DNA from: a virus | Lineage: Duplodnaviria; Caudoviricetes | DNA length: 64,000 nucleotides | Reading direction: 5' to 3' (one strand) | IMG/VR virus record: IMGVR_UViG_3300046543_000595 | Span: 1 to 64,000 of that record | Shown: positions 2,915-24,062 of the stretch, piece after piece | How the letters are laid out: every line of letters starts with the position of its first letter | Position numbering within the stretch: the stretch's first letter is position 1 | Translations under genes and position numbers: made by a program | Notes under the pieces: model-generated | Told to the model about the DNA's origin: nothing | What the model saw: the letters and a program-made list of their open reading frames with translations, nothing else | Databases searched by the model: none

Positions 2915-2985
2915 GCGGTTGGATTAGAACGGGCTTAGGACCGCTCTGCCGCATTAGGTGGCGAGGATCGCCACCCCTTCTGCGT
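2915..2985 (-). ncRNA. twister ribozyme-like RNA, type-P5 permutation, copy 1
   Basis: minus strand GCAGAAGG-[GGUGGCGA/UCGCCACC]-UAAUGCGGC-[AGAGCGG UCCUAAGC CCGUUCU]; matches the twister core. Confidence 0.85.
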
Positions 2986-3049
2986 TAATTCCCGCAAACC
3001 CCCCAGAAAGCTCCCAAGATTTCTAATTCAGGTTTCATCGTTTCCAACC

Positions 3050-3184
3050 CTAATTCTCGTAGTCGAAAAACATGAAATCGCAGTTGGTGAAGAAGTCGCG
3101 GTAATCCAACTCCTGACAAATCTGAAGCGCGGTTTCAGGGAAAAGTGTGATGTGATTGTATTTCTCGTTTTCAGTCATTTCCAT
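3050..3184 (-). CDS. 44-aa hypothetical protein
   Basis: read by eye: MEMTENEKYNHITLFPETALQICQELDYRDFFTNCDFMFFDYEN; AAGGA SD; lies behind twister copy 2. Confidence 0.5.
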   Translation of the reverse strand: MEMTENEKYNHITLFPETALQICQELDYRDFFTNCDFMFFDYEN

Positions 3185-3197
3185 TCTGTCCTTTCGA

Positions 3198-3272
3198 GCG
3201 GTTGAGTTTGCCCCCGGGCTACCGACCGGGCTGCCGCATTAACGGGAGGACCGCCCTCCCGCCGGTCTGCGT
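3198..3272 (-). ncRNA. twister ribozyme-like RNA, copy 2
   Basis: GCAGACCG-[P1]-UAAUGCGGC-[CCCGG UCGGUAGC CCGGG]; CG/CG covariation of the pseudoknot. Confidence 0.8.
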
Positions 3273-3274
3273 GG

Positions 3275-3679
3275 TTACTCGCTGCCGTCCACGAAACATG
3301 GCACCGGCTCACGAAGGTCGGAGAGCCTCCGTATCGCGCCGGTAGCCACGAACACCTTCAGCGCCTCGCGGCACGCCTCACGGCCCTCCAGCCGGTAAAT
3401 TTCGGCAAACGTCGCCACGTGCGCGTCAAGCCGCGCCGCCTGGTCCGCTAACGGTCTGGGCGCGGACCATTTCAGCGGCAATGTGAGCGCCGCTGCGTGC
3501 GTCATCAGCACGCACGACTCGATCCCGTCTTCGATCTCCCACGGTTGCACCGTCACATAGATCCCCCGCTGACTCTCCGTCAACGTCTTCATGTAATGCA
3601 CGGTGACGCGTATCACCTTGCCGGCCGCTGCCGTCTGCCAGCGGAACTCGTCCCGCGTCTTCTGTTTGAGATTGTCCAT
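3275..3679 (-). CDS. hypothetical protein, paralog of 4231..4704
   Basis: shares GK-RVTV-YMKT...RGIYV-V-PWEIE with 4231..4704. Confidence 0.7.
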   Translation of the reverse strand: MDNLKQKTRDEFRWQTAAAGKVIRVTVHYMKTLTESQRGIYVTVQPWEIEDGIESCVLMTHAAALTLPLKWSAPRPLADQAARLDAHVATFAEIYRLEGREACREALKVFVATGAIRRLSDLREPVPCFVDGSE

Positions 3680-3696
3680 AGTCCATTCACTCCTAA

Positions 3697-3772
3697 GCGG
3701 TTTGATTTTGGCATCGGGTTTCGGACCGACCGCCGACCGCATTAGCGGGCATCGCTGCCCGCCCGTCTGCGT
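3697..3772 (-). ncRNA. twister ribozyme-like RNA, copy 3
   Basis: GCAGACGG-[GCGGGCA/UGCCCGC]-UAAUGCGGUC-[GUCGG UCCGAAAC CCGAU]; GU/AC covariation. Confidence 0.82.
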
Positions 3773-4234
3773 TTAACACCTCCGGCGTTTTGAAGTCTTC
3801 GGCCGAACCGTTTCAGCGGCAATGTGACCAACAATAGCTCGCTCAATGACCTCTAACCTCAGTTCAGCACTCTCAATCCGGCAGTCACAGTGTTTGGGAT
3901 AGCAGGTAAACCGTACACCCGTGTCCGTCACCTCGACGCGATCACATTCGGTTCGTTGTGGTTCCCCGAACACAAAGCTATCCGGAACCTCGAAGACATT
4001 CTCTTTGTCTGGATCGGCAACTTCTTCGATTTCCTCCGTCCATCCCAGCATGTCCGCCGAAGCATCCCAATACACCATCGTGTCCAGGCTCGTTTCGGCC
4101 TGTTTTAAGATCTTGAACTGTGTAATCCTGCGTTCCAGGATCGTCGCCAGTTCTGGCGTTAGATCCACGGCAGCATAGTCACAGTCCCCGTTGAAGTTCT
4201 CGTTGGTGGACCACGTTTTCAGTAGGAGTTTCAT
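3773..4234 (-). CDS. hypothetical protein
   Basis: ORF; ATGA overlap with the upstream gene. Confidence 0.65.
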   Translation of the reverse strand: MKLLLKTWSTNENFNGDCDYAAVDLTPELATILERRITQFKILKQAETSLDTMVYWDASADMLGWTEEIEEVADPDKENVFEVPDSFVFGEPQRTECDRVEVTDTGVRFTCYPKHCDCRIESAELRLEVIERAIVGHIAAETVRPKTSKRRRC

Positions 4235-4704
4235 AAGGACACCTGCGCTTCGATATCTTCCGGCGTGCACGTGCATTCGGTCGTCAAGTGGATGGTGCAG
4301 CGCAAAACGGCCGGTAGAACGGTCGGCATGACTCCCAATTCAAAGAGCGATACCAGCGCCGCCTGCGTCACATCCTTCCCGTGCGTCAAGAACATGGCGG
4401 CCAAGGCCGGCGCGTGAAGATCGACCTTCTGCGCGATCTCCTGCATTTTCCTGGGCGTCGCGCGTGCCAGGTGCTCGACAAACAATCCTTTCGTGCCGCT
4501 GCACAGCACCGTCGATTCGCCCGACCAGCCCCGTCCGTTGTCCGGCTCGATCTCCCACGGGTCCACGTTTACGTAGATACCTCGGCGTGACAGACTCATC
4601 GTCTTCATGTACTTCACCGTCACCCGGGCTATTTTGCCCACGGTTCCGCTGTCGTAGCGGTATTCGTCGTTCGATCTCAGTTTCAGGTTCACTAAATTAG
4701 CCAT
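4231..4704 (-). CDS. hypothetical protein, paralog of 3275..3679
   Basis: GGAGG SD; similarity visible by eye. Confidence 0.7.
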   Translation of the reverse strand: MANLVNLKLRSNDEYRYDSGTVGKIARVTVKYMKTMSLSRRGIYVNVDPWEIEPDNGRGWSGESTVLCSGTKGLFVEHLARATPRKMQEIAQKVDLHAPALAAMFLTHGKDVTQAALVSLFELGVMPTVLPAVLRCTIHLTTECTCTPEDIEAQVSL

Positions 4705-4719
4705 CAGGTCCTCCAAAGA

Positions 4720-4804
4720 GCGGTTTGATTTGGTGCGCGATTTGGGACGCGCCACCGACCGCATTCCGGACCGTCCTCGCCGAGAAACGGTCCGCCCTCT
4801 GCGT
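4720..4804 (-). ncRNA. twister ribozyme-like RNA, copy 4 (variant GAA at the cleavage site)
   Basis: GCAGAGGG-[CGGACCGU...ACGGUCCG]-GAAUGCGGUC-[GCGCG UCCCAAAU CGCGC]. Confidence 0.7.
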
Positions 4805-4805
4805 T

Positions 4806-5297
4806 TTATCCCTCGGTACCACCTCCTTCGTCCGTCGTTTCAGCATCGTAGTGCATCTGCGCCCGCGACAACGCCGTTTCGAAACTCCCGTATTCCTCCG
4901 ATTCCCTGTCGCATAGGTGCATCAGATCGGCCAGAAGATCGCAGATCGCGTCTCCGGCATCCACTCCCGTGGAGTCCATGAACACCTTCAAGGATTGCTC
5001 TGCCCATTCGGCCCGCTCCGGATTCATGTCGTCCGGGTCCGGCGGCAGCCCGGTTTCATCGTCAACTTCCCGGGTTTCCGGTCCTTCAACGGTCGTCGGT
5101 TCGTTTAGAAGACCGTAGCCTTCACTGATCCATTGCCCCATCGCGCCCACTCGATCCACGTACTCAGGCGCATCCGTGTAAACGTCCTGTGAGCCAAGGT
5201 TGACGATCTCTGCCAGGATCTCCCGCATTGAATACTTACGATTGGCTTCCGGGCGTGTCGGTGGAATGTAGTCGTCGTCATCCATTTCCTTATCCAC
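4806..5297 (-). CDS. acidic hypothetical phage protein
   Basis: ORF; C-terminal N-ERAEWAE...DLLADLMHLCD...A-MHYDAE motif. Confidence 0.65.
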   Translation of the reverse strand: MDKEMDDDDYIPPTRPEANRKYSMREILAEIVNLGSQDVYTDAPEYVDRVGAMGQWISEGYGLLNEPTTVEGPETREVDDETGLPPDPDDMNPERAEWAEQSLKVFMDSTGVDAGDAICDLLADLMHLCDRESEEYGSFETALSRAQMHYDAETTDEGGGTEG

Positions 5298-5538
5298 GAG
5301 GCACCCCCAGCGCGTTCAGCGCGTCGCAGACCGCCTGCGCCTGCACCACATGCTTCGATTTGGTATCCGATCCCGCACCTTCCCATCCGTCCTCGTTGTA
5401 CCAGACGGTCGCCATGACCTTGTTTGACGTCTCCGCCGATCCATCTTCCGGCAGCACCCGCACGATCTCGTACGCCGCCTGCACCCCATTGCCGTTTCGC
5501 GCTCCCCGACCGATGCGTACCACGTAGCGGCTATCCAC
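5290..5538 (-). CDS. hypothetical protein
   Basis: GAGG SD with GTG start; coupled to its neighbours. Confidence 0.5.
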   Translation of the reverse strand: MDSRYVVRIGRGARNGNGVQAAYEIVRVLPEDGSAETSNKVMATVWYNEDGWEGAGSDTKSKHVVQAQAVCDALNALGVPRG

Positions 5539-5836
5539 GGTCCACCTCGATCTCCTTCCGGCTCGCCCAATCGCCGCGACGTGGATCTCCCTCCCACACC
5601 CGCCCGTTGTACGACACGTAGGCGATACGCTTCCCCGCATCATCCAGGAGGACTCCCGCGTCGCCCGTCCAATTTCCCATCCCTAAATGATTGGTCGCGA
5701 TGTACTGCCGGACGATCCGGCTCGCATCTGCGTATGTCCGCACGTCCAGGCGCGTCTCGCGCCCGCTATGCACCGGCTTCTGCCAGTACCCACCCACGAT
5801 GTCCGGATTCTTTCGATGTCTCAATATGAGCTTCAT
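5531..5836 (-). CDS. hypothetical phage protein
   Basis: GMGNWTG...IAYVSYNGRVW motif; GGGAG SD; behind twister copy 5. Confidence 0.65.
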   Translation of the reverse strand: MKLILRHRKNPDIVGGYWQKPVHSGRETRLDVRTYADASRIVRQYIATNHLGMGNWTGDAGVLLDDAGKRIAYVSYNGRVWEGDPRRGDWASRKEIEVDRG

Positions 5837-5848
5837 TGCGAACTCCCA

Positions 5849-5918
5849 GCGGTATGATTGGACTCGGCTTTGGACGAGTCTGCCGCATTACGGGGCATCG
5901 CTGCCCCGCCATCTGCGT
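5849..5918 (-). ncRNA. twister ribozyme-like RNA, copy 5
   Basis: GCAGAUGG-[CGGGGCA/UGCCCCG]-UAAUGCGGC-[GACUCG UCCAAAGC CGAGUC]. Confidence 0.85.
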
Positions 5919-6009
5919 TATGCGAGATACCCACCGCTAGATCGTGCTTGCGCCACTTCTCGCCCCGCGCCGCGGGTGAGCGCGGTTGCGTGGTGCCGCG
6001 GGGTTGGGG

Positions 6010-6195
6010 TTAATCGTCAAGCGTCCTGATATCTGCAAACCAGTTCAACCCCTGCGATGCAAAAGTTGAGTTGAGCTCGTTTGAAATAGTCTCAGCCTGC
6101 TCCTTACTCAGTTTCGCGCGGATCTTTGTCACGACTCGCTGAGTCCGATCGTTTACACGTACTAAAACGGCGTGCTCGTTCTGCTTCGTCTTCAT
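6010..6195 (-). CDS. hypothetical protein
   Basis: AGGAGG SD. Confidence 0.55.
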   Translation of the reverse strand: MKTKQNEHAVLVRVNDRTQRVVTKIRAKLSKEQAETISNELNSTFASQGLNWFADIRTLDD

Positions 6196-6205
6196 ATCGT
6201 CCCTC

Positions 6206-6853
6206 CTACTTCTTCTTGAATAGAATCGTTTGGTTCATCCTGTACAGCTGCTGGTCATCCCAGCACAACCGGCAATTCACGCACGGTATCCCCTTTGTAT
6301 CGTGCGGACACTCCACAAACTTCGGTGCCCCCGGCAATCCGATCACCGACCGCACCAACTCACCATGCGACACCATCTCACTGTCGTACGTATACGCTGT
6401 CGCGTACCCACGAGCGCGAGCTTGCGCCATCTGGCCAACCGTATCGCACGAGGCCAGCACGCTCACCCCGGCCCACGACGACCGCTCCACCCGATCCCAC
6501 GAGTGTGTATACGTCCACGCTGGTGACCCAGCACGCTTCCTGTACGCCCTCGCCGCCGCCGATACAATCCGCGCCGCGCCATTCGTCCGGCAATCCCCCG
6601 ACACGTGCAGTCTCAACGGTCGCCAGCCGCTCAATCGTCGTATCCCTGCCGCCTCCGCCCGGGCAATCTCCACCGGGTTCCCGCCATCCAACCGCGCTGT
6701 CTGCGCCGCCACCATGCCTCGTTCCGCATAGCACCCATTCCCCATCAACGGGCAATCCATCGGACACGATTCCAGGTTGACGTACGTCGCGGATACCGGA
6801 CCAGTCTTCCGGTTATCCGAATTCTCGACCGCTATCGCCCGCTTCCGGATCAT
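6206..6853 (-). CDS. Cys-rich phage protein (DUF7227/Gp88-like)
   Basis: NRKTG, SCP-DCPL...GCYA, LRLHVSGD, WTYTH and C-terminal CP...CxxCxxC motifs. Confidence 0.65.
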   Translation of the reverse strand: MIRKRAIAVENSDNRKTGPVSATYVNLESCPMDCPLMGNGCYAERGMVAAQTARLDGGNPVEIARAEAAGIRRLSGWRPLRLHVSGDCRTNGAARIVSAAARAYRKRAGSPAWTYTHSWDRVERSSWAGVSVLASCDTVGQMAQARARGYATAYTYDSEMVSHGELVRSVIGLPGAPKFVECPHDTKGIPCVNCRLCWDDQQLYRMNQTILFKKK

Positions 6854-7245
6854 CGGCTTCTCCCGCCTTCGACCAATCCGCAATGCGCCAATAACCGCGC
6901 CCGCAGCGGTTTCAACTCTTCCACCAAGTACCCATAATCCACGTCTGCCGCGCCGACAATCGCCGACACGTCGTCTCGCGACAAACCCAGCATCATGCCC
7001 TCGTAGGCGAAACTGCCGGAACCTTCCACTCCCGCCACACAATTGATCGGGCAGGCATCGCCTTTCGTGTTTCGGATGAACCTGCCGAGTTTCAACGTCC
7101 AGCCCGTTTGGGGCAATCGGGCAAAGAAGTCATCCAGCGTCATCGCCCCTCGTTCTTTCCGCGTATGGCACGTGCACGCGCAATCGGGATCGACACAGCG
7201 GTCGTGATGGTAGGCTTCGCAGACGGTCGTGATGTTGAGTCTCAT
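6850..7245 (-). CDS. hypothetical protein
   Basis: ORF coupled to both neighbours; alternative start at 7143. Confidence 0.5.
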   Translation of the reverse strand: MRLNITTVCEAYHHDRCVDPDCACTCHTRKERGAMTLDDFFARLPQTGWTLKLGRFIRNTKGDACPINCVAGVEGSGSFAYEGMMLGLSRDDVSAIVGAADVDYGYLVEELKPLRARLLAHCGLVEGGRSR

Positions 7246-7886
7246 TAGAATGCCTCCACTTCTTCGTGCCGTTTCACGTCGATGACCAGCCCATGCGCCC
7301 GACCGACCGTGAAGTCGTTACGGTAGTCCGCGTCGGGCACGAGGAAGTACCTGTGCGCGACGTCTCCACGTTTTCCACCAAGGGTGCACGTTGAACCGAC
7401 AAACCCGGGAGGCACGTTCTTGTGCCAATCGCCAACATTCGCGATCGCCACCCATTTATCGGCAGTCTGCTCCTCAAATGCCTTTCGATCACGGATGTAC
7501 GATTCGCCGATCTGGATCGTCTCGCCCGTGAACCGCTCGTATTCGTCCGGGTTCCAGTTCTTCACCGTGCCCGCCACCGTTTCCAGGTTTACCGTCTCTT
7601 TGGTCTGAAACTCCGGCCAGAACACCAGATACGGCATGGCCCAATGACAATCTTCCTCGTACCAGCCACCCGCCTGCCGCATGTACGGCGGCATCTGCGC
7701 ATTCCGCTCTCTCGATAACTTCACGCCACCATGTGACGGCGTACCGACAAACCACGCGCCTGGAATTAACTCCTTTACGTGATCCGCGCGGCCCCACGGC
7801 GTGCTCATACCCTCCCGTGGTTCAGCCGATCTTTCCGCCTTTTCCGGACGAACAAACATGAACGGGACCATCTTGATTTCACTCAT
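7245..7886 (-). CDS. DUF7007-like protein
   Basis: TPWG-AD...TPSHGG-KLS-ERNA-MP...GGWYEEDC-WA motif. Confidence 0.7.
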   Translation of the reverse strand: MSEIKMVPFMFVRPEKAERSAEPREGMSTPWGRADHVKELIPGAWFVGTPSHGGVKLSRERNAQMPPYMRQAGGWYEEDCHWAMPYLVFWPEFQTKETVNLETVAGTVKNWNPDEYERFTGETIQIGESYIRDRKAFEEQTADKWVAIANVGDWHKNVPPGFVGSTCTLGGKRGDVAHRYFLVPDADYRNDFTVGRAHGLVIDVKRHEEVEAF

Positions 7887-7898
7887 CGAATACTCCCA

Positions 7899-7973
7899 GC
7901 GGTTGAATTTGGCGCAGGTTGTGGACTGCCGCCGACCGCATTAACGCACCCCATCGGGTGCGCCCATCTGCGT
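7899..7973 (-). ncRNA. twister ribozyme-like RNA, copy 6
   Basis: GCAGAUGG-[GCGCACCC/GGGUGCGU]-UAAUGCGGUC-[GCAG UCCACAAC CUGC]. Confidence 0.82.
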
Positions 7974-18262: not shown

Positions 18263-18589
18263 ATGTGGAAAGTGGACCCATCCGACAAGTATCCGGAACC
18301 GAGCAAAGAGCACTTAATCAACCGCCGCCAGATCAAGTTCGCGACGATCCCGAATGAATACGCCTGTGGCATCCTCTCTGGTCGCACGCGAATCATCAAC
18401 CTGCCGGAGGACGCGGAGATCGCCGGCTACTTCCATGACTGGCTCCGTGACGGCCTTGGTGTCTATATCTACTCGTCGACATATCCCCGTGTCGAACCAT
18501 GCCTCGAGATCGGCCGGGTGGAACTCATTTACCAGCGCGTTGACAACCCGGCGCCGGCAGTGGTAGATTCTGGGTCGGCGGGTGGGTGA
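18263..18589 (+). CDS. hypothetical protein
   Basis: GAGGAG SD; 3' end overlaps a promoter and the tRNA. Confidence 0.55.
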   Translation: MWKVDPSDKYPEPSKEHLINRRQIKFATIPNEYACGILSGRTRIINLPEDAEIAGYFHDWLRDGLGVYIYSSTYPRVEPCLEIGRVELIYQRVDNPAPAVVDSGSAGG

Positions 18590-18651
18590 AGCGGTTTCCA
18601 CGATGGTCTCATAAGCCATAGATACTGAGGTTCGATTCCTCAGATCCGCCA
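18577..18651 (+). tRNA. tRNA with CAT anticodon (Met or Ile2)
   Basis: cloverleaf; ATGGT-CTCATAA-GCCAT; GTTCGATTC; TTGACA-17-TAGATT promoter at 18540. Confidence 0.88.
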
Positions 18652-18718
18652 TATAGACTTACCCTATACAACGACGAAGGCGCACCAGACCGACAGTTCT
18701 CGAGAGTCGGTAAGCAGA

Positions 18719-18758
18719 CCCCCCGGAGCACCATGGAATTCCGGGGGTTTCGCTTTTT
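18719..18758. terminator. intrinsic terminator between convergent units
   Basis: CCCCCGGA...TCCGGGGG stem followed by a T-rich tail. Confidence 0.6.
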
Positions 18759-19677: not shown

Positions 19678-20335
19678 ATGATAGTTGAAATCCGAGCCGC
19701 CGAGGGCGGCGATGACGCCAAATTACTCGTCCTGGATCAGTGCCGCATCTACGCGAAACGATGTCTCAGGAACGGTCTTTGACTTTGCGATCGTCGATCA
19801 ACGGCCAGGTATTATCGTTACGATTATTCGTGGCGCGAAAGAACACATCTTCCAATCTGAATCCGGTGGCCATCGCTGGCAGCGGATCCCACCGACCGAA
19901 AAGCGCGGCCGCGTTCAAACCAGCACCATCACGGTAGCCGTCTTACCCGAACCCACTGCCGTCGAAGATCCATTGAAATTACACGATCTGGACTGGATGA
20001 CTTGTCGCTCTGGCGGTAAGGGCGGCCAGAACGTGAACAAAGTCGAATCGGCGGTGCAGATCCGTCATCGTCCCACCGGTCTGATTGTGCGGTGTGAATC
20101 GGAACGCTCGCAGCTGCTGAACAAACAGTCGGCGCTGGAGATCATGCGGGCAAAGCTCTGGGATGCGGCACGTACGCAGCAGAGTAACGCGATAGCCAGT
20201 GATCGTAAACAGCAGGTCGGCGCCGGCATGCGTGGCGACAAGCGACGGACGATCCGGGTGAGGGATGGGGCGGTCGTCGACCACGTGACGGGACAGCGCT
20301 GGAAATTCGATGACTACATTGCGGGACGATGGTAA
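19678..20335 (+). CDS. short class-I peptide chain release factor (RF1-like PxT), expressed through a +1 programmed frameshift at CTT-TGA-C (19777-19783)
   Basis: GGAGG SD and ATG 19678 give MIVEIRAAEGGDDA...NGL*; the +1 frame continues to ESGGHRWQRIPPTEKRGRVQTS and SGGKGGQNVNKVESAV. Confidence 0.9.
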
Positions 20336-20363
20336 TTGACATCGTCCACAGAACGTGGATAAT
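20336..20363 (+). promoter_or_regulatory. sigma70-like promoter of tRNA operon 1
   Basis: TTGACA-16-GATAAT. Confidence 0.7.
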
Positions 20364-20369
20364 CGAACC

Positions 20370-20447
20370 GTGAACATCACGTACATCATGGACGCACGAG
20401 CCGCCGCGAGACCGTGGCCACCCGTGTGTCTGGGAGGCGGTATGTAG
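20370..20447 (+). CDS. leader peptide 1 (MNITYIMDARAAARPWPPVCLGGGM)
   Basis: GTG sits at the predicted +1 (leaderless); its Ala/Arg/Pro/Trp run matches the downstream tRNAs. Confidence 0.65.
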   Translation: MNITYIMDARAAARPWPPVCLGGGM

Positions 20448-20475
20448 CGCGCGAACTACAAATTCCACTCCTCTC

Positions 20476-20507
20476 AGGCTGACAGCAATGTCAGCCTTTT
20501 TTGTTTT
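20476..20507 (+). terminator. intrinsic terminator (attenuator) before tRNA-Pro
   Basis: AGGCTGACA-GCAA-TGTCAGCCT-TTTTTGTTTT. Confidence 0.85.
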
Positions 20508-20508
20508 C

Positions 20509-20580
20509 CGGGATGTAGGAAAGTGGGTATCCACTCCGTTTGGGGCGGAGGAATCGCCAGTTCGAATCTGGTCATCCCGA
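20509..20580 (+). tRNA. tRNA-Pro(TGG)
   Basis: cloverleaf; CTCCG-TTTGGGG-CGGAG. Confidence 0.9.
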
Positions 20581-20589
20581 CTTGTTTAT

Positions 20590-20660
20590 GGGCCGGTAGC
20601 TCAACGGGAGAGCGTCTCACTTGCAATGAGAAAGATGGGGTTCGATTCCCCCCGTGTCCA
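20590..20660 (+). tRNA. tRNA-Ala(TGC)
   Basis: TCTCA-CTTGCAA-TGAGA; G3:U70 pair. Confidence 0.85.
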
Positions 20661-20664
20661 CTTT

Positions 20665-20753
20665 ACGGACGTGGCCGAGTGGTTGAAGGCTCCGGATTCC
20701 AGACCCGGATGACCGTAATGGTCGCATCGTTGGTTCGAATCCAACCGTCCGTG
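20665..20753 (+). tRNA. tRNA with CCA (Trp) anticodon and long variable arm
   Basis: loop TTCCAGA; variable stem GACC-GTAAT-GGTC; A1-U72 and G73. Confidence 0.75.
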
Positions 20754-20760
20754 CTTCAGA

Positions 20761-20860
20761 TTGGCGGTCCCTGTGCAACCAAGCACGAGGCGCTCCTCTG
20801 GTCGAGGGTGGGGCTGGGTTTCGAATCTCCGGCCCGGCGCTGTTGGGACGGGGCCGCCAA
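20761..20860 (+). ncRNA. structured non-tRNA RNA within the tRNA array
   Basis: closing stem TTGGCGGTCC/GGGCCGCCAA; internal hairpins, one with a TTCGAAT loop. Confidence 0.45.
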
Positions 20861-20867
20861 TGTCTTT

Positions 20868-20941
20868 CGGGATGTAGGAAAGCCTGGAAATCCGTCTGCC
20901 TCGGGCGCAGAAGATCGCCGGTTCAAATCCGGCCATCCCGA
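20868..20941 (+). tRNA. tRNA-Pro(CGG)
   Basis: TCTGC-CTCGGGC-GCAGA. Confidence 0.9.
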
Positions 20942-20945
20942 CTTT

Positions 20946-21020
20946 GCCCGCGTAGCTCAGCCTGGATAGAGCGACGAGCTTCTAACTCGAGGGCCGCAGG
21001 TCCGAATCCTGCCGCGGGTA
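20946..21020 (+). tRNA. tRNA-Arg(TCT)
   Basis: CGAG-CTTCTAA-CTCG. Confidence 0.9.
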
Positions 21021-21035
21021 CTATATACTGGCCGC

Positions 21036-21191
21036 ATGTGGCTAATCATCGAAACCGATTCCACGGTCGAGATCGTCCCCGACTTCGGTCGGCAGCATGT
21101 GCTGGTCGGAGATAACGATGGACCGTGCTGGTGCGTGCCTCGAATCGAAGAGAACGATCGCGATCTCGTCATCCACGAAGCGGACAACTGA
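21036..21191 (+). CDS. 51-aa hypothetical protein
   Basis: read by eye: MWLIIETDSTVEIVPDFGRQHVLVGDNDGPCWCVPRIEENDRDLVIHEADN. Confidence 0.5.
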   Translation: MWLIIETDSTVEIVPDFGRQHVLVGDNDGPCWCVPRIEENDRDLVIHEADN

Positions 21192-21192
21192 C

Positions 21193-21220
21193 TTGACAAC
21201 CGATCGGCAGTGTGCATAAT
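21193..21220 (+). promoter_or_regulatory. sigma70-like promoter of tRNA operon 2
   Basis: TTGACA-16-CATAAT. Confidence 0.7.
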
Positions 21221-21319
21221 CGGATCTGAACTTGATAGGGTTTGCGAATCGTCCAGTTTCACTCATTACCTCTCTGGGAACGGCAGTCGAGCAATCGCTG
21301 CCGACCCGGCACTTATAAA

Positions 21320-21409
21320 ATGCGATTTATAAAACAACACGAACACATCCAGACACGCGGTAGGAATACCGTCGGAATGGATACGTTCGTGCCGGAGGTC
21401 ACCGGGTAA
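21320..21409 (+). CDS. leader peptide 2 (MRFIKQHEHIQTRGRNTVGMDTFVPEVTG)
   Basis: amino-acid set equals that of the 21 downstream tRNAs plus one Pro; followed by an attenuator. Confidence 0.7.
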   Translation: MRFIKQHEHIQTRGRNTVGMDTFVPEVTG

Positions 21410-21434
21410 AGAACCAAAACCCGAATGACCGACC

Positions 21435-21470
21435 GGCCGGAGACACAAGGTTCTCCGGCCTTTCTGTTTT
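21435..21470 (+). terminator. intrinsic terminator (attenuator) before tRNA operon 2
   Basis: GGCCGGAGA-CACAAGGT-TCTCCGGCC-TTTCTGTTTT. Confidence 0.85.
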
Positions 21471-21471
21471 C

Positions 21472-21543
21472 TGCCCCGTGGCGCAGTGGTAGCGCGGCGC
21501 TCTCATAAGGCGACGGTCGGGAGTCCGAATCTCCCCGGGGCGA
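21472..21543 (+). tRNA. tRNA with CAT anticodon (Met or Ile2)
   Basis: loop CTCATAA; cloverleaf. Confidence 0.85.
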
Positions 21544-22763: not shown

Positions 22764-22766
22764 CTT

Positions 22767-22840
22767 GGGACCGGCGCATAACGGCTGGTGCGCTCCGCTG
22801 TCTACGGATGCTTTAGGGGGTTCAACTCCCCTCGGTCCCG
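22767..22840 (+). tRNA. tRNA-Asp(GTC)
   Basis: TCCG-CTGTCTA-CGGA. Confidence 0.82.
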
Positions 22841-22843
22841 TCT

Positions 22844-23403: not shown

Positions 23404-23404
23404 C

Positions 23405-23434
23405 TTGACAGAACCAAACCCGATCGTCTAGGAT
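23405..23434 (+). promoter_or_regulatory. sigma70-like promoter of tRNA operon 3
   Basis: TTGACA-18-TAGGAT. Confidence 0.65.
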
Positions 23435-23442
23435 GACCCATC

Positions 23443-23541
23443 ATGAAAGTGCAAATCTTTCGCCACGTGATCGCTGCTTTAGCCAGTTCTTCCCGCTTGC
23501 GCCTCTCCTCGTTACGACTCAGTTATTGTTCATCTCTGTAA
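23443..23541 (+). CDS. leader peptide 3 (MKVQIFRHVIAALASSSRLRLSSLRLSYCSSL)
   Basis: ATG near the predicted +1; 16 of the last 20 codons are Ser, Leu, Tyr or Cys, matching the downstream tRNAs. Confidence 0.7.
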   Translation: MKVQIFRHVIAALASSSRLRLSSLRLSYCSSL

Positions 23542-23556
23542 ACCAAAACTAAACTC

Positions 23557-23630
23557 GCCCCTGTACGCAAACTGGCAAAGCGATCCCGCTCAAAACGGGC
23601 TGTTTGTGGGTCCGACTCCCACCGGGGGTA
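23557..23630 (+). tRNA. tRNA-Leu(CAA), short variable arm
   Basis: CCCG-CTCAAAA-CGGG. Confidence 0.82.
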
Positions 23631-23632
23631 TT

Positions 23633-23717
23633 GGCGATGTAGACGTGTACGGCGCACGGGCGCTCTGTAAAAGCGTTTTGGGCAACTGACCACTGAGTTC
23701 GATTCTCAGCATCGCCA
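23633..23717 (+). tRNA. tRNA-Tyr(GTA)
   Basis: GCGCT-CTGTAAA-AGCGT; long variable arm. Confidence 0.82.
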
Positions 23718-23720
23718 CTT

Positions 23721-23811
23721 GGAAGCGTGGTCGAGCGGTTTATGACACCGGCCCCGAAACCCGGCGGGTAGTTGAAAGGCTATCTCGTGAGTTCGAATCT
23801 CACCGCTTCCT
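23721..23811 (+). tRNA. tRNA-Ser(CGA)
   Basis: loop CCCGAAA (C33); long variable arm. Confidence 0.82.
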
Positions 23812-23814
23812 CTT

Positions 23815-23895
23815 GGCCCCTTGGTGAAACGGCATACACGCCGGTCTTAGGAACCGGTTCCTTCGGGAGTGAGAGTTCAAGTCTCTCAGGGGCTA
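23815..23895 (+). tRNA. tRNA-Leu(TAG)
   Basis: CCGGT-CTTAGGA-ACCGG. Confidence 0.9.
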
Positions 23896-23898
23896 TTC

Positions 23899-23971
23899 GG
23901 ACGTCTGCCGGAATGGTTAACGGGCTGGGCTGCAAACCCAGTTTTTAGGAGTTCGATCCTCCTGGCGTCCT
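23899..23971 (+). tRNA. tRNA-Cys(GCA)
   Basis: CTGGG-CTGCAAA-CCCAG; U73. Confidence 0.88.
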
Positions 23972-23974
23972 CTT

Positions 23975-24061
23975 GGAGAGATGGCCGAGTCTGGCTGAAG
24001 GCACCGGTTTGCTAAACCGGCAGGCAGTGATGTCTCGCGGGTTCAAATCCCGCTCTCTCCG
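23975..24061 (+). tRNA. tRNA-Ser(GCT)
   Basis: CCGGT-TTGCTAA-ACCGG; long variable arm. Confidence 0.92.
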
Positions 24062-24062
24062 C

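Follow-up and report, generated by a model that had tools for sequence, protein, structure and literature searches.

How the expression of phage tRNA genes is set, and why phages carry such genes at all, is a long-standing question. In the 64,000-nucleotide stretch of phage DNA analysed here (the window), positions 20336 to 20507 raise it in a concrete form. A promoter, a short open frame and an intrinsic terminator follow one another directly in front of the first of three tRNA clusters, and the frame contains at least one codon for each of the tRNAs behind it. Does translation of this frame decide how far transcription proceeds? We propose that the leader, L1, acts as a translation-sensing transcription attenuator gating the first of the three tRNA clusters of a 107-kb soil phage, a reading to which we assign a probability of roughly 0.45.

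Results

The phage, its relatives and its tRNA genes

The window covers the opening 64 kb of a virus record that is complete at 107,420 bp and carries direct terminal repeats, and the portal protein of the phage is P22/SU10-like. The contigs that carry the stretch with L1 and with L2, the leader of the second cluster, originate from soil, rhizosphere and root metagenomes. Contigs of four runs over positions 20300-21480 contained no variants in either of these two leaders. A portal-protein search led to one full-genome relative, G001 (109,586 bp, portal identity 67%), and to a 57-kb fragment, G002, whose leader is identical to that of G001; we count two independent leader sequences, those of the window and of G001. 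Portal-protein searches with single and with aligned queries gave four loci each and no full-length genome beyond G001. Pattern scans of viral contigs returned eight stretches, two of them real (G001 and G002) and six unrelated by context, and a second pattern recovered two, again G001 and G002. A scan of genome contigs for relatives of L1 returned none. In a metagenome scan, which gave at least 120 stretches, ATGTAG followed the match in none among the matches listed, and the rows inspected among them were high-GC coding sequence.

ARAGORN called 31 tRNA genes on the plus strand between 20509 and 24062, and Rfam added one at 18577-18651. Cluster 1 (20509-21021, plus strand) consists of Pro(tgg), Ala(tgc), a 90-nt tRNA with anticodon CCA, Pro(cgg) and Arg(tct). 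Cluster 2, also on the plus strand, runs from tRNA-Met at 21472 to tRNA-Arg(cct) at 23404 and enters the coverage test below with 21 tRNAs, and cluster 3 (23557-24062, plus strand) holds Leu, Tyr, Ser, Leu, Cys and Ser. The 32 tRNA genes of G001 keep this cluster order, the first cluster there comprising Pro(tgg), Ala(tgc), Arg(tct) and an anticodon-CCA tRNA.

Several features of the tRNA region are recorded here in their own right. A tRNA-Asp(gtc) at 22766-22842 was called only at a lowered ARAGORN threshold; its neighbours are tRNA-Gly(gcc) and tRNA-Glu(ttc), an arrangement shared by G001. The anticodon-CCA tRNA (20665-20754; also in L038, 4916-5007, minus strand) is 90-92 nt long. Its long variable arm and its D arm resemble those of Ser-, Leu- and Tyr-type tRNAs, which is unusual for a tRNA-Trp. 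The 113-nt gap that follows (20755-20867) contains a T-arm-like stretch but drew no tRNA call, even at the lowered ARAGORN threshold, and may be a decayed tRNA. A single anticodon-CAT tRNA, found by Rfam only, lies in a unit of its own (18540-18758) with a promoter-like site, TTGACA-18-TAGATT; it is followed at 18720-18758 by an 8-pair hairpin with a T-rich tail, and the unit also occurs in G001. The minus strand (2929-7972) has five Twister-P5 ribozyme matches within 5 kb, all of which, at 45-56 bits, exceed the Rfam gathering score.

Directly upstream of the L1 leader is a release-factor-like gene (19685-20335, 216 aa; RF-1 domain E = 1.1e-27), a truncated class-I form made up of the end of the PCRF domain and an RF-1 domain with GGQ. 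Its closest relatives, at 50-58% identity, sit among the tRNA genes of jumbo phages. The initial annotation had suggested that the TAG stop codon of the L1 frame could sense RF1. TAG does end the L1 frame in both phages (the frames of L2 and of L3, the leader of cluster 3, end in TAA), yet the release-factor-like gene is found in neither G001 nor G002 (0/2) and nothing links the two, which leaves the suggestion unsupported.

A promoter and a mini-frame ahead of the first cluster

The L1 promoter (20336-20363, plus strand) is of the sigma-70 type, with TTGACA at 20336-20341, a 16-nt spacer and GATAAT at 20358-20363, and agrees with the consensus at 11 of 12 positions. Only seven sites in the 107,420-bp genome reach at least 10 of 12 positions, and four of these (18540, 20336, 21193 and 23405) face tRNA units. 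G001 has TTGCAC-16-GATAAT at the aligned place.

The mini-frame (20370-20447, plus strand) begins with a GTG at the expected transcription start and runs for 25 codons to a TAG at 20445-20447. As originally described, this GTG lies 7 nt past the -10 box, its G at 20370 being the seventh base. The ORF list begins the frame at an in-frame GTG at 20355; we analysed it from 20370. Because of the position of the start codon, with no Shine-Dalgarno motif found upstream of it, we infer leaderless initiation. Some bacteria initiate poorly at leaderless GUG codons, which counts against the attenuator reading. A Shine-Dalgarno-like 4-mer occurs at about 42% of crude gene starts against a background of 16%, so that the host makes only partial use of such sites, which leaves room for leaderless or Shine-Dalgarno-less starts without showing them. 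In both phages the start codons of L1 and L3 lie 7-11 nt past the -10 box. The L1 frame of G001 is open over 27 codons, with an ATG 10 nt past the -10 box and the same ATG TAG end.

Within the window frame, GCA (20394-20396) is the exact Watson-Crick cognate of Ala(tgc). The four codons of the run AGA CCG TGG CCA (20409-20420, plus strand) match the anticodons of Arg(tct), Pro(cgg), Trp(cca) and Pro(tgg) exactly by Watson-Crick pairing. These are four of the five tRNAs of cluster 1, and this match, which had been noticed at the outset, was confirmed against the five tRNA calls. Runs of at least four strict cognates of the five cluster-1 tRNAs occur 32 times in the six frames of the genome, a rate equivalent to an expectation of 0.021 for each 140-nt leader, and are reached by 0.5% of 20,000 dinucleotide shuffles of 20370-20475, the run statistic being post hoc.

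A 17-nt block with GCC GCG AGA CCG TGG is identical in the L1 leaders of the window and of G001. The two leaders also have in common the block GGGAGGCG.TATGTAG and CTACAAA, and are otherwise about 76% alike. At the peptide level, the core AAARPWP.V..GG.M is kept between the phages, and the N-terminal halves of the mini-frame peptides vary. Because PWPP in the window is PWPT in G001, this motif is not conserved, which speaks against the proposal that it could sense EF-P status.

Sister leaders and codon coverage

The second cluster is headed by the L2 module (21193-21471, plus strand), with a promoter at 21193-21220 (11/12), a mini-frame at 21320-21409, a terminator at 21435-21460 and then tRNA-Met at 21472. 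The L2 leader is 250 nt long and structured (z = -4.3), and its 29-codon frame contains no Leu, Ser or Ala codons. All of its parts are present in G001, where the frame aligns with two 6-nt gaps and has the same end. The L3 module (23405-23556, plus strand) has a promoter at 23405-23434, a near-leaderless mini-frame at 23443-23541 and no terminator before tRNA-Leu at 23557. Its frame of 32 codons, rich in Leu, Ser, Tyr and Cys, starts 9 nt past the -10 box and ends 15 nt before tRNA-Leu. The homologous frame in G001 has its ATG 8 nt past the -10 box and one 3-nt indel; over the last 14 codons the two phages show four synonymous differences, and the peptide core LRL..SLRLSYC.SL is kept. Differences between the phages in L2 and L3 are 3- or 6-nt indels together with synonymous changes, for example AGG/CGA for Arg.

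The three leaders differ in composition. The L3 leader is unstructured (z = +1.5), C-rich and G-poor in both phages (C/G 1.9-2.0, rising to 2.6 in the 3' half), and by its sequence would resemble a Rho loading site. L1, with a C/G of 1.13 and a high degree of structure, lacks the unstructured, C-rich and G-poor stretch that tnaC-type, Rho-dependent leader-peptide control has at or after the end of its frame. No common motif was found between the L1 and L2 leaders.

We defined coverage as the number of tRNAs in a cluster for which the leader frame holds at least one readable codon under standard wobble, and compared it with 20,000 equal-length in-frame windows drawn from the phage's 40 ORFs of at least 300 aa. 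In the window, L1 covers 5/5 tRNAs of its own cluster (p = 0.014), L2 19/21 (p = 0.0003) and L3 6/6 (p = 0.003). The corresponding values in G001 are 4/4 (p = 0.022), 16/20 (p = 0.003) and 7/8 (p = 0.02), which depend on its kinship with the window phage and are not an independent sample. The statistic was picked after L2 had been viewed, and for this reason L1, L3 and G001 are the fair tests. Coverage of the other clusters is average or depleted (L2 against cluster 3, 0/6; L3 against cluster 1, 0/5, and against cluster 2, 7/21). Read in frame +1, the same DNA covers 4/5, 11/21 and 4/6 tRNAs, and in frame +2 1/5, 12/21 and 4/6. With alternative start choices, p stayed at or below 0.03.

When codons were permuted among the three frames, the diagonal count was 36 against a mean of 21.6, and none of 20,000 permutations was as high in either phage; the same permutation in frames +1 and +2 gave p = 0.04 to 0.68, the values 0.04 and 0.25 among them. 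With three leaders, a permutation of labels alone cannot yield a p below 1/6. Enrichment of single codons is modest, at 6/24 in L1 against 2.8 expected (p = 0.05) and 7/31 in L3 against 3.7. Together, the results support a match between the codons of the frame and the tRNAs behind it, and this match generalises to three clusters and two phages.

Structure of the L1 leader and its terminator

The L1 leader has a folding z of -4.60, with 0/200 shuffles as good. Hairpin P2 (20390-20431, plus strand), present in both the minimum-energy and the centroid fold, is composed of an outer helix (20390-20398/20423-20431) and an inner helix (20403-20408/20413-20418) with the loop AGAC. The outer helix has an energy of -14.4 kcal/mol, which 0.5% of shuffles match. 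Helix P3 (20430-20477, plus strand) joins CTGGGAGG at 20430-20437 to CCTCTCAG at 20470-20477, with a core of 20432-20437/20470-20475. This pairing had been described as overlapping the 5' foot of the terminator, and it holds up: the segments are complementary, and the last two bases of P3 (AG, 20476-20477) are shared with the terminator stem. The minimum-energy fold contains six of the eight pairs of P3 (GGGAGG:CCUCUC) and uses the AG in the terminator. P3 encloses a further hairpin (20443-20447/20456-20460) that holds the stop codon. The block of its 5' strand, GGGAGGCG.TATGTAG, has one base different in G001; the 3' partner differs there yet pairs.

The L1 intrinsic terminator (20476-20507, plus strand) has a 9-pair stem at 20476-20497 with a GCAA loop, followed by TTTTTTGTTTT, and reaches -14.8 kcal/mol alone. 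It lies 28 nt past the stop codon and about 1-3 nt before tRNA-Pro (20509). By a strict rule, only four strong terminator-like sites were found in the genome, and two of them are those of L1 and L2 (21435-21460). The L1 terminator of G001 is in the same place with a different sequence and ends 12 nt before tRNA-Pro; most positions in the arms differ between the phages, and the pairing is kept. Four leaders, L1 and L2 of both phages, bear a terminator; in each of them the stop codon precedes the terminator stem by 24-28 nt and a helix leads from the last frame codons to bases that abut or overlap the terminator foot. The competing antiterminator of the initial annotation is thus borne out in its architecture across these four leaders, but in the window the helix coexists with the terminator.

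Searches of the window with Rfam gave no match to the leader at the gathering score. The T-box covariance model was unmatched at the gathering score in the window, and up to E = 10 in 20330-20515. The best sub-threshold Rfam match to the leader, sroB (28.5 bits against the 44 needed), was driven by the terminator and was rejected.

Models of ribosome position

To model a ribosome, we kept 28 nucleotides (A site -15 to +12) unpaired at each codon in turn. In the window L1 leader, the mean pair probability of the terminator was 0.96 without a ribosome, 0.88-0.97 with one at every codon in turn and 0.97 with one at the stop codon, and shorter footprints left the result unchanged. The terminated state was 7-11 kcal/mol better than the best terminator-free state. 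Within the full leader, four pairs at the terminator foot fell from 0.93-0.95 to 0.75-0.79 with the ribosome at codons 5-6, 9, 13-14 or 17. In the window, and in equilibrium models only, the terminator therefore dominates regardless of translation, an outcome named in advance as speaking against attenuation. In the trp attenuator, too, the terminator outweighs the antiterminator in stability, and kinetic control may therefore operate despite dominance at equilibrium. The barrier for the window terminator is small, however, since its upper five pairs can form without touching P3.

Transcripts cut after the terminator loop behaved as follows in the models. A ribosome at codons 5-17 opened P2, and P3 extended 4-6 pairs into the 5' strand of the terminator; the extension was absent without a ribosome or with one at codons 18-26. 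As modelled, this pattern is classical attenuator logic. The claim that stalling frees P3 agrees with the models of cut transcripts that have the ribosome at codons 5-17, but in the full leader terminator probability never drops below 0.88. The models suggest that any attenuation effect in the window phage would be modest.

The two phages distribute their pairing strength differently. In the window, the pairing of the post-sensor segment with the terminator 5' strand (2:3) has an energy of -4.3 kcal/mol, and 63% of shuffles are as good. In G001 it has -12.2 kcal/mol (0.9% of shuffles as good), and the 1:2 pairing -6.3 kcal/mol (32%). The window thus has a strong 1:2 (-14.4 kcal/mol) and a weak 2:3 pairing, and G001 a weak 1:2 and a strong 2:3. 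Between the two independent L1 sequences covariation is absent, because partners swapped across the two equal or outdo the cognate ones in pairing. The antiterminator pairing is accordingly strong in G001, but weak in the window and free of covariation. The L1 of G001 behaves otherwise in the model: it is antiterminated in the absence of a ribosome (P = 0.03) and becomes terminated when a ribosome occupies the sensor codons. For L2 the ribosome model gave no clear switch in either phage.

Leaders of jumbo-phage tRNA-Pro clusters

The relatives of the release-factor-like gene lie on jumbo-phage contigs of 171-456 kb, on which the tRNA genes are sorted by amino acid. Three of them (L003, 3802-4111; L004, 2240-2468; L006, 2750-3006) have a conserved frame of 23-25 codons, with the core MRP..FRP[CY].P, in the region from a promoter-like site to the tRNA-Pro cluster; the tRNA list of L005 is that of L004. 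In each frame, all three Pro isoacceptors of the following cluster find Pro codons. After the frame come a conserved GC-rich hairpin, with a poor U tract and no terminator call, and then tRNA-Pro(tgg). The ORF lists showed no mini-frame before the Phe pair in L004 or the Leu cluster in L003.

In the consensus fold of these leaders, one hairpin lies within the frame and a second downstream of it, and a further segment is able to pair with the 5' strand of the second. Under the ribosome model used for L1, P for the downstream hairpin is 0.91-0.99 when no ribosome is present and 0.82-0.99 when one stands at the frame end; it drops to 0.00-0.33 with the A site at the Phe-Arg-(Pro)-Cys/Tyr codons, which is a clean two-state switch in the model. 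Because the model detects this switch, its weak answer for the window L1 is meaningful. Homology between L1 and the jumbo-phage leaders was considered and rejected: local alignments gave p = 0.09-0.46, and MAFFT left the motifs unaligned.

Discussion

At the head of the first tRNA cluster, a promoter, a frame with a codon match, a terminator and the helices between them are laid out in the DNA and conserved in one relative. The most economical reading of this order of promoter, frame, helix, terminator and tRNA genes is, at slightly less than even odds, that translation of the frame controls the terminator. That the L1 frame is translated, in which direction the effect runs and how large it is we infer.

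Under the attenuator reading, host RNA polymerase would initiate at the near-consensus L1 promoter, and the transcript would start with the start codon or only a few bases away from it. The 25-codon frame, which offers at least one codon to each of the five tRNAs directly downstream, would be read as a leaderless message. When decoding is fast, ribosomes would reach the last codons and open P3, leaving the terminator unopposed, and most transcripts would end there. Slow decoding of any of the cognate codons would stall the ribosome upstream, with P2 opened and P3 intact. The intact P3 would extend into the terminator foot and allow more read-through into the tRNA genes. The outcome would be a feedback of decoding capacity on phage tRNA synthesis.

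A wider form of this proposal, which we regard as doubtful and put forward tentatively, is that each of the three units is headed by a mini-frame serving as its "table of contents", and that slow decoding raises exactly the unit that relieves it. The 32-33 tRNA genes would then fall into three transcription units, with intrinsic terminators for L1 and L2 and an unstructured, C-rich leader of the Rho-dependent type for L3. Slow decoding could arise from a mismatch with host codon usage, from host shut-off or from defensive anticodon nucleases. In the portions of the literature available to us, we found no description of leader-peptide control, or of unit-specific demand sensing, of tRNA genes.

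Among the alternatives, the one that survives best is a fixed leaky valve or insulator, in which the terminator ends most transcription from the very strong promoter, a set fraction passes to the tRNAs and the frame is not sensed. Such a terminator would also block all read-through from the upstream release-factor-like gene, and the leader would be a stable structured by-product. This account, which we consider unlikely though worth weighing closely, agrees with the models, where no position of the ribosome prevents the terminator from forming in the window L1 or in either L2 leader. The high degree of structure in the L1 and L2 leaders (z = -4.6 and -4.3) also fits it, and no conserved strong antiterminator was found. 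It leaves unexplained why own-cluster coverage of 5/5, 19/21 and 6/6 in the window goes with low coverage of the other clusters and is confined to the open frame, in both phages, why start codons lie at the expected transcription start and why the indels in L2 and L3 are multiples of three.

Processive antitermination, mediated by a factor or by RNA, is improbable in our judgement. Here the conserved leader hairpins, P3 and the invariant GCCGCG-AGAC-CGTGGC hairpin, would modify RNA polymerase in the manner of HK022 put RNA or be bound by a phage protein as in the lambda N and Q systems, and polymerases from the L1 promoter would ignore the terminator. The lambda late operon likewise has a constitutive promoter with a terminator close behind it, which counts for this explanation, as does the identity of the 17-nt hairpin block and of the P3 5' strand in leaders that elsewhere agree at about 76%. 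A codon-specific sensor, however, also predicts such nucleotide identity, and the codon match is left unexplained. The Q-antiterminator families PF06530 and PF03589 gave 0 matches in the complete genome, with E. coli controls positive, there were no Rfam matches, and L1 and L2 are without a common motif. Slightly less probable still, the idea that the frames encode small functional peptides, or are translated only as a shield against Rho or RNases, with the terminator as the end of a small gene and the tRNAs made by read-through, would fit the peptide cores conserved between phages in L1 and L3 and the synonymous differences, but it does not account for the match of each frame to the tRNAs behind it, and the N-terminal halves are unconserved.

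If the attenuator reading is true, the phage gauges how well codons are being decoded and sets its tRNA supply accordingly, and leader-peptide attenuation extends from metabolic operons to tRNA genes. The three-way match between codons and clusters provides a simple criterion for any phage tRNA array.

Leader-peptide attenuators are familiar from amino-acid operons, as in trpL, hisL, pheL and leuL and the multivalent thrL and ilvL. Like these, L1 has a short promoter-adjacent frame whose putative regulatory codons are cognate to what the operon supplies, a hairpin over the sensor codons, a helix from the frame end to the terminator and an intrinsic terminator before the regulated genes. Unlike them, the phage element would regulate tRNA genes and not enzymes, and its start is probably leaderless. 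Its frame samples each cluster tRNA once, whereas the trpL class repeats one codon, and the window antiterminator overlaps the terminator foot only and coexists with the terminator in the models. The pheST attenuator with its pheM leader peptide, which contains runs of Phe codons, controls a component of the translation machinery, a synthetase, encoded by a cellular gene. Both pheST and, as proposed, L1 would thus represent leader-peptide attenuation of translation machinery, pheST on the side of the synthetase.

Other systems share parts of the design. T-boxes, as L1 is proposed to do, couple the state of a specific tRNA to terminator read-through; unlike L1, they need no translation, since the uncharged tRNA itself is bound, and the genes under their control are those for synthetases or amino acids. 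In lambda PR'-tR' with Q and in the HK022 put RNA, as in L1, a strong promoter is followed within 100-250 nt by a terminator to be overcome, but the phage studied here has no gene of the two Q families searched and no known put-like family, and has a codon-matched frame instead. The jumbo-phage leaders differ from L1 in that their similarity to it in sequence is insignificant, their modelled switch is clean and their hairpin is not a called terminator, yet they share with it the succession of a promoter, a short codon-matched frame, a hairpin and tRNA-Pro(tgg).
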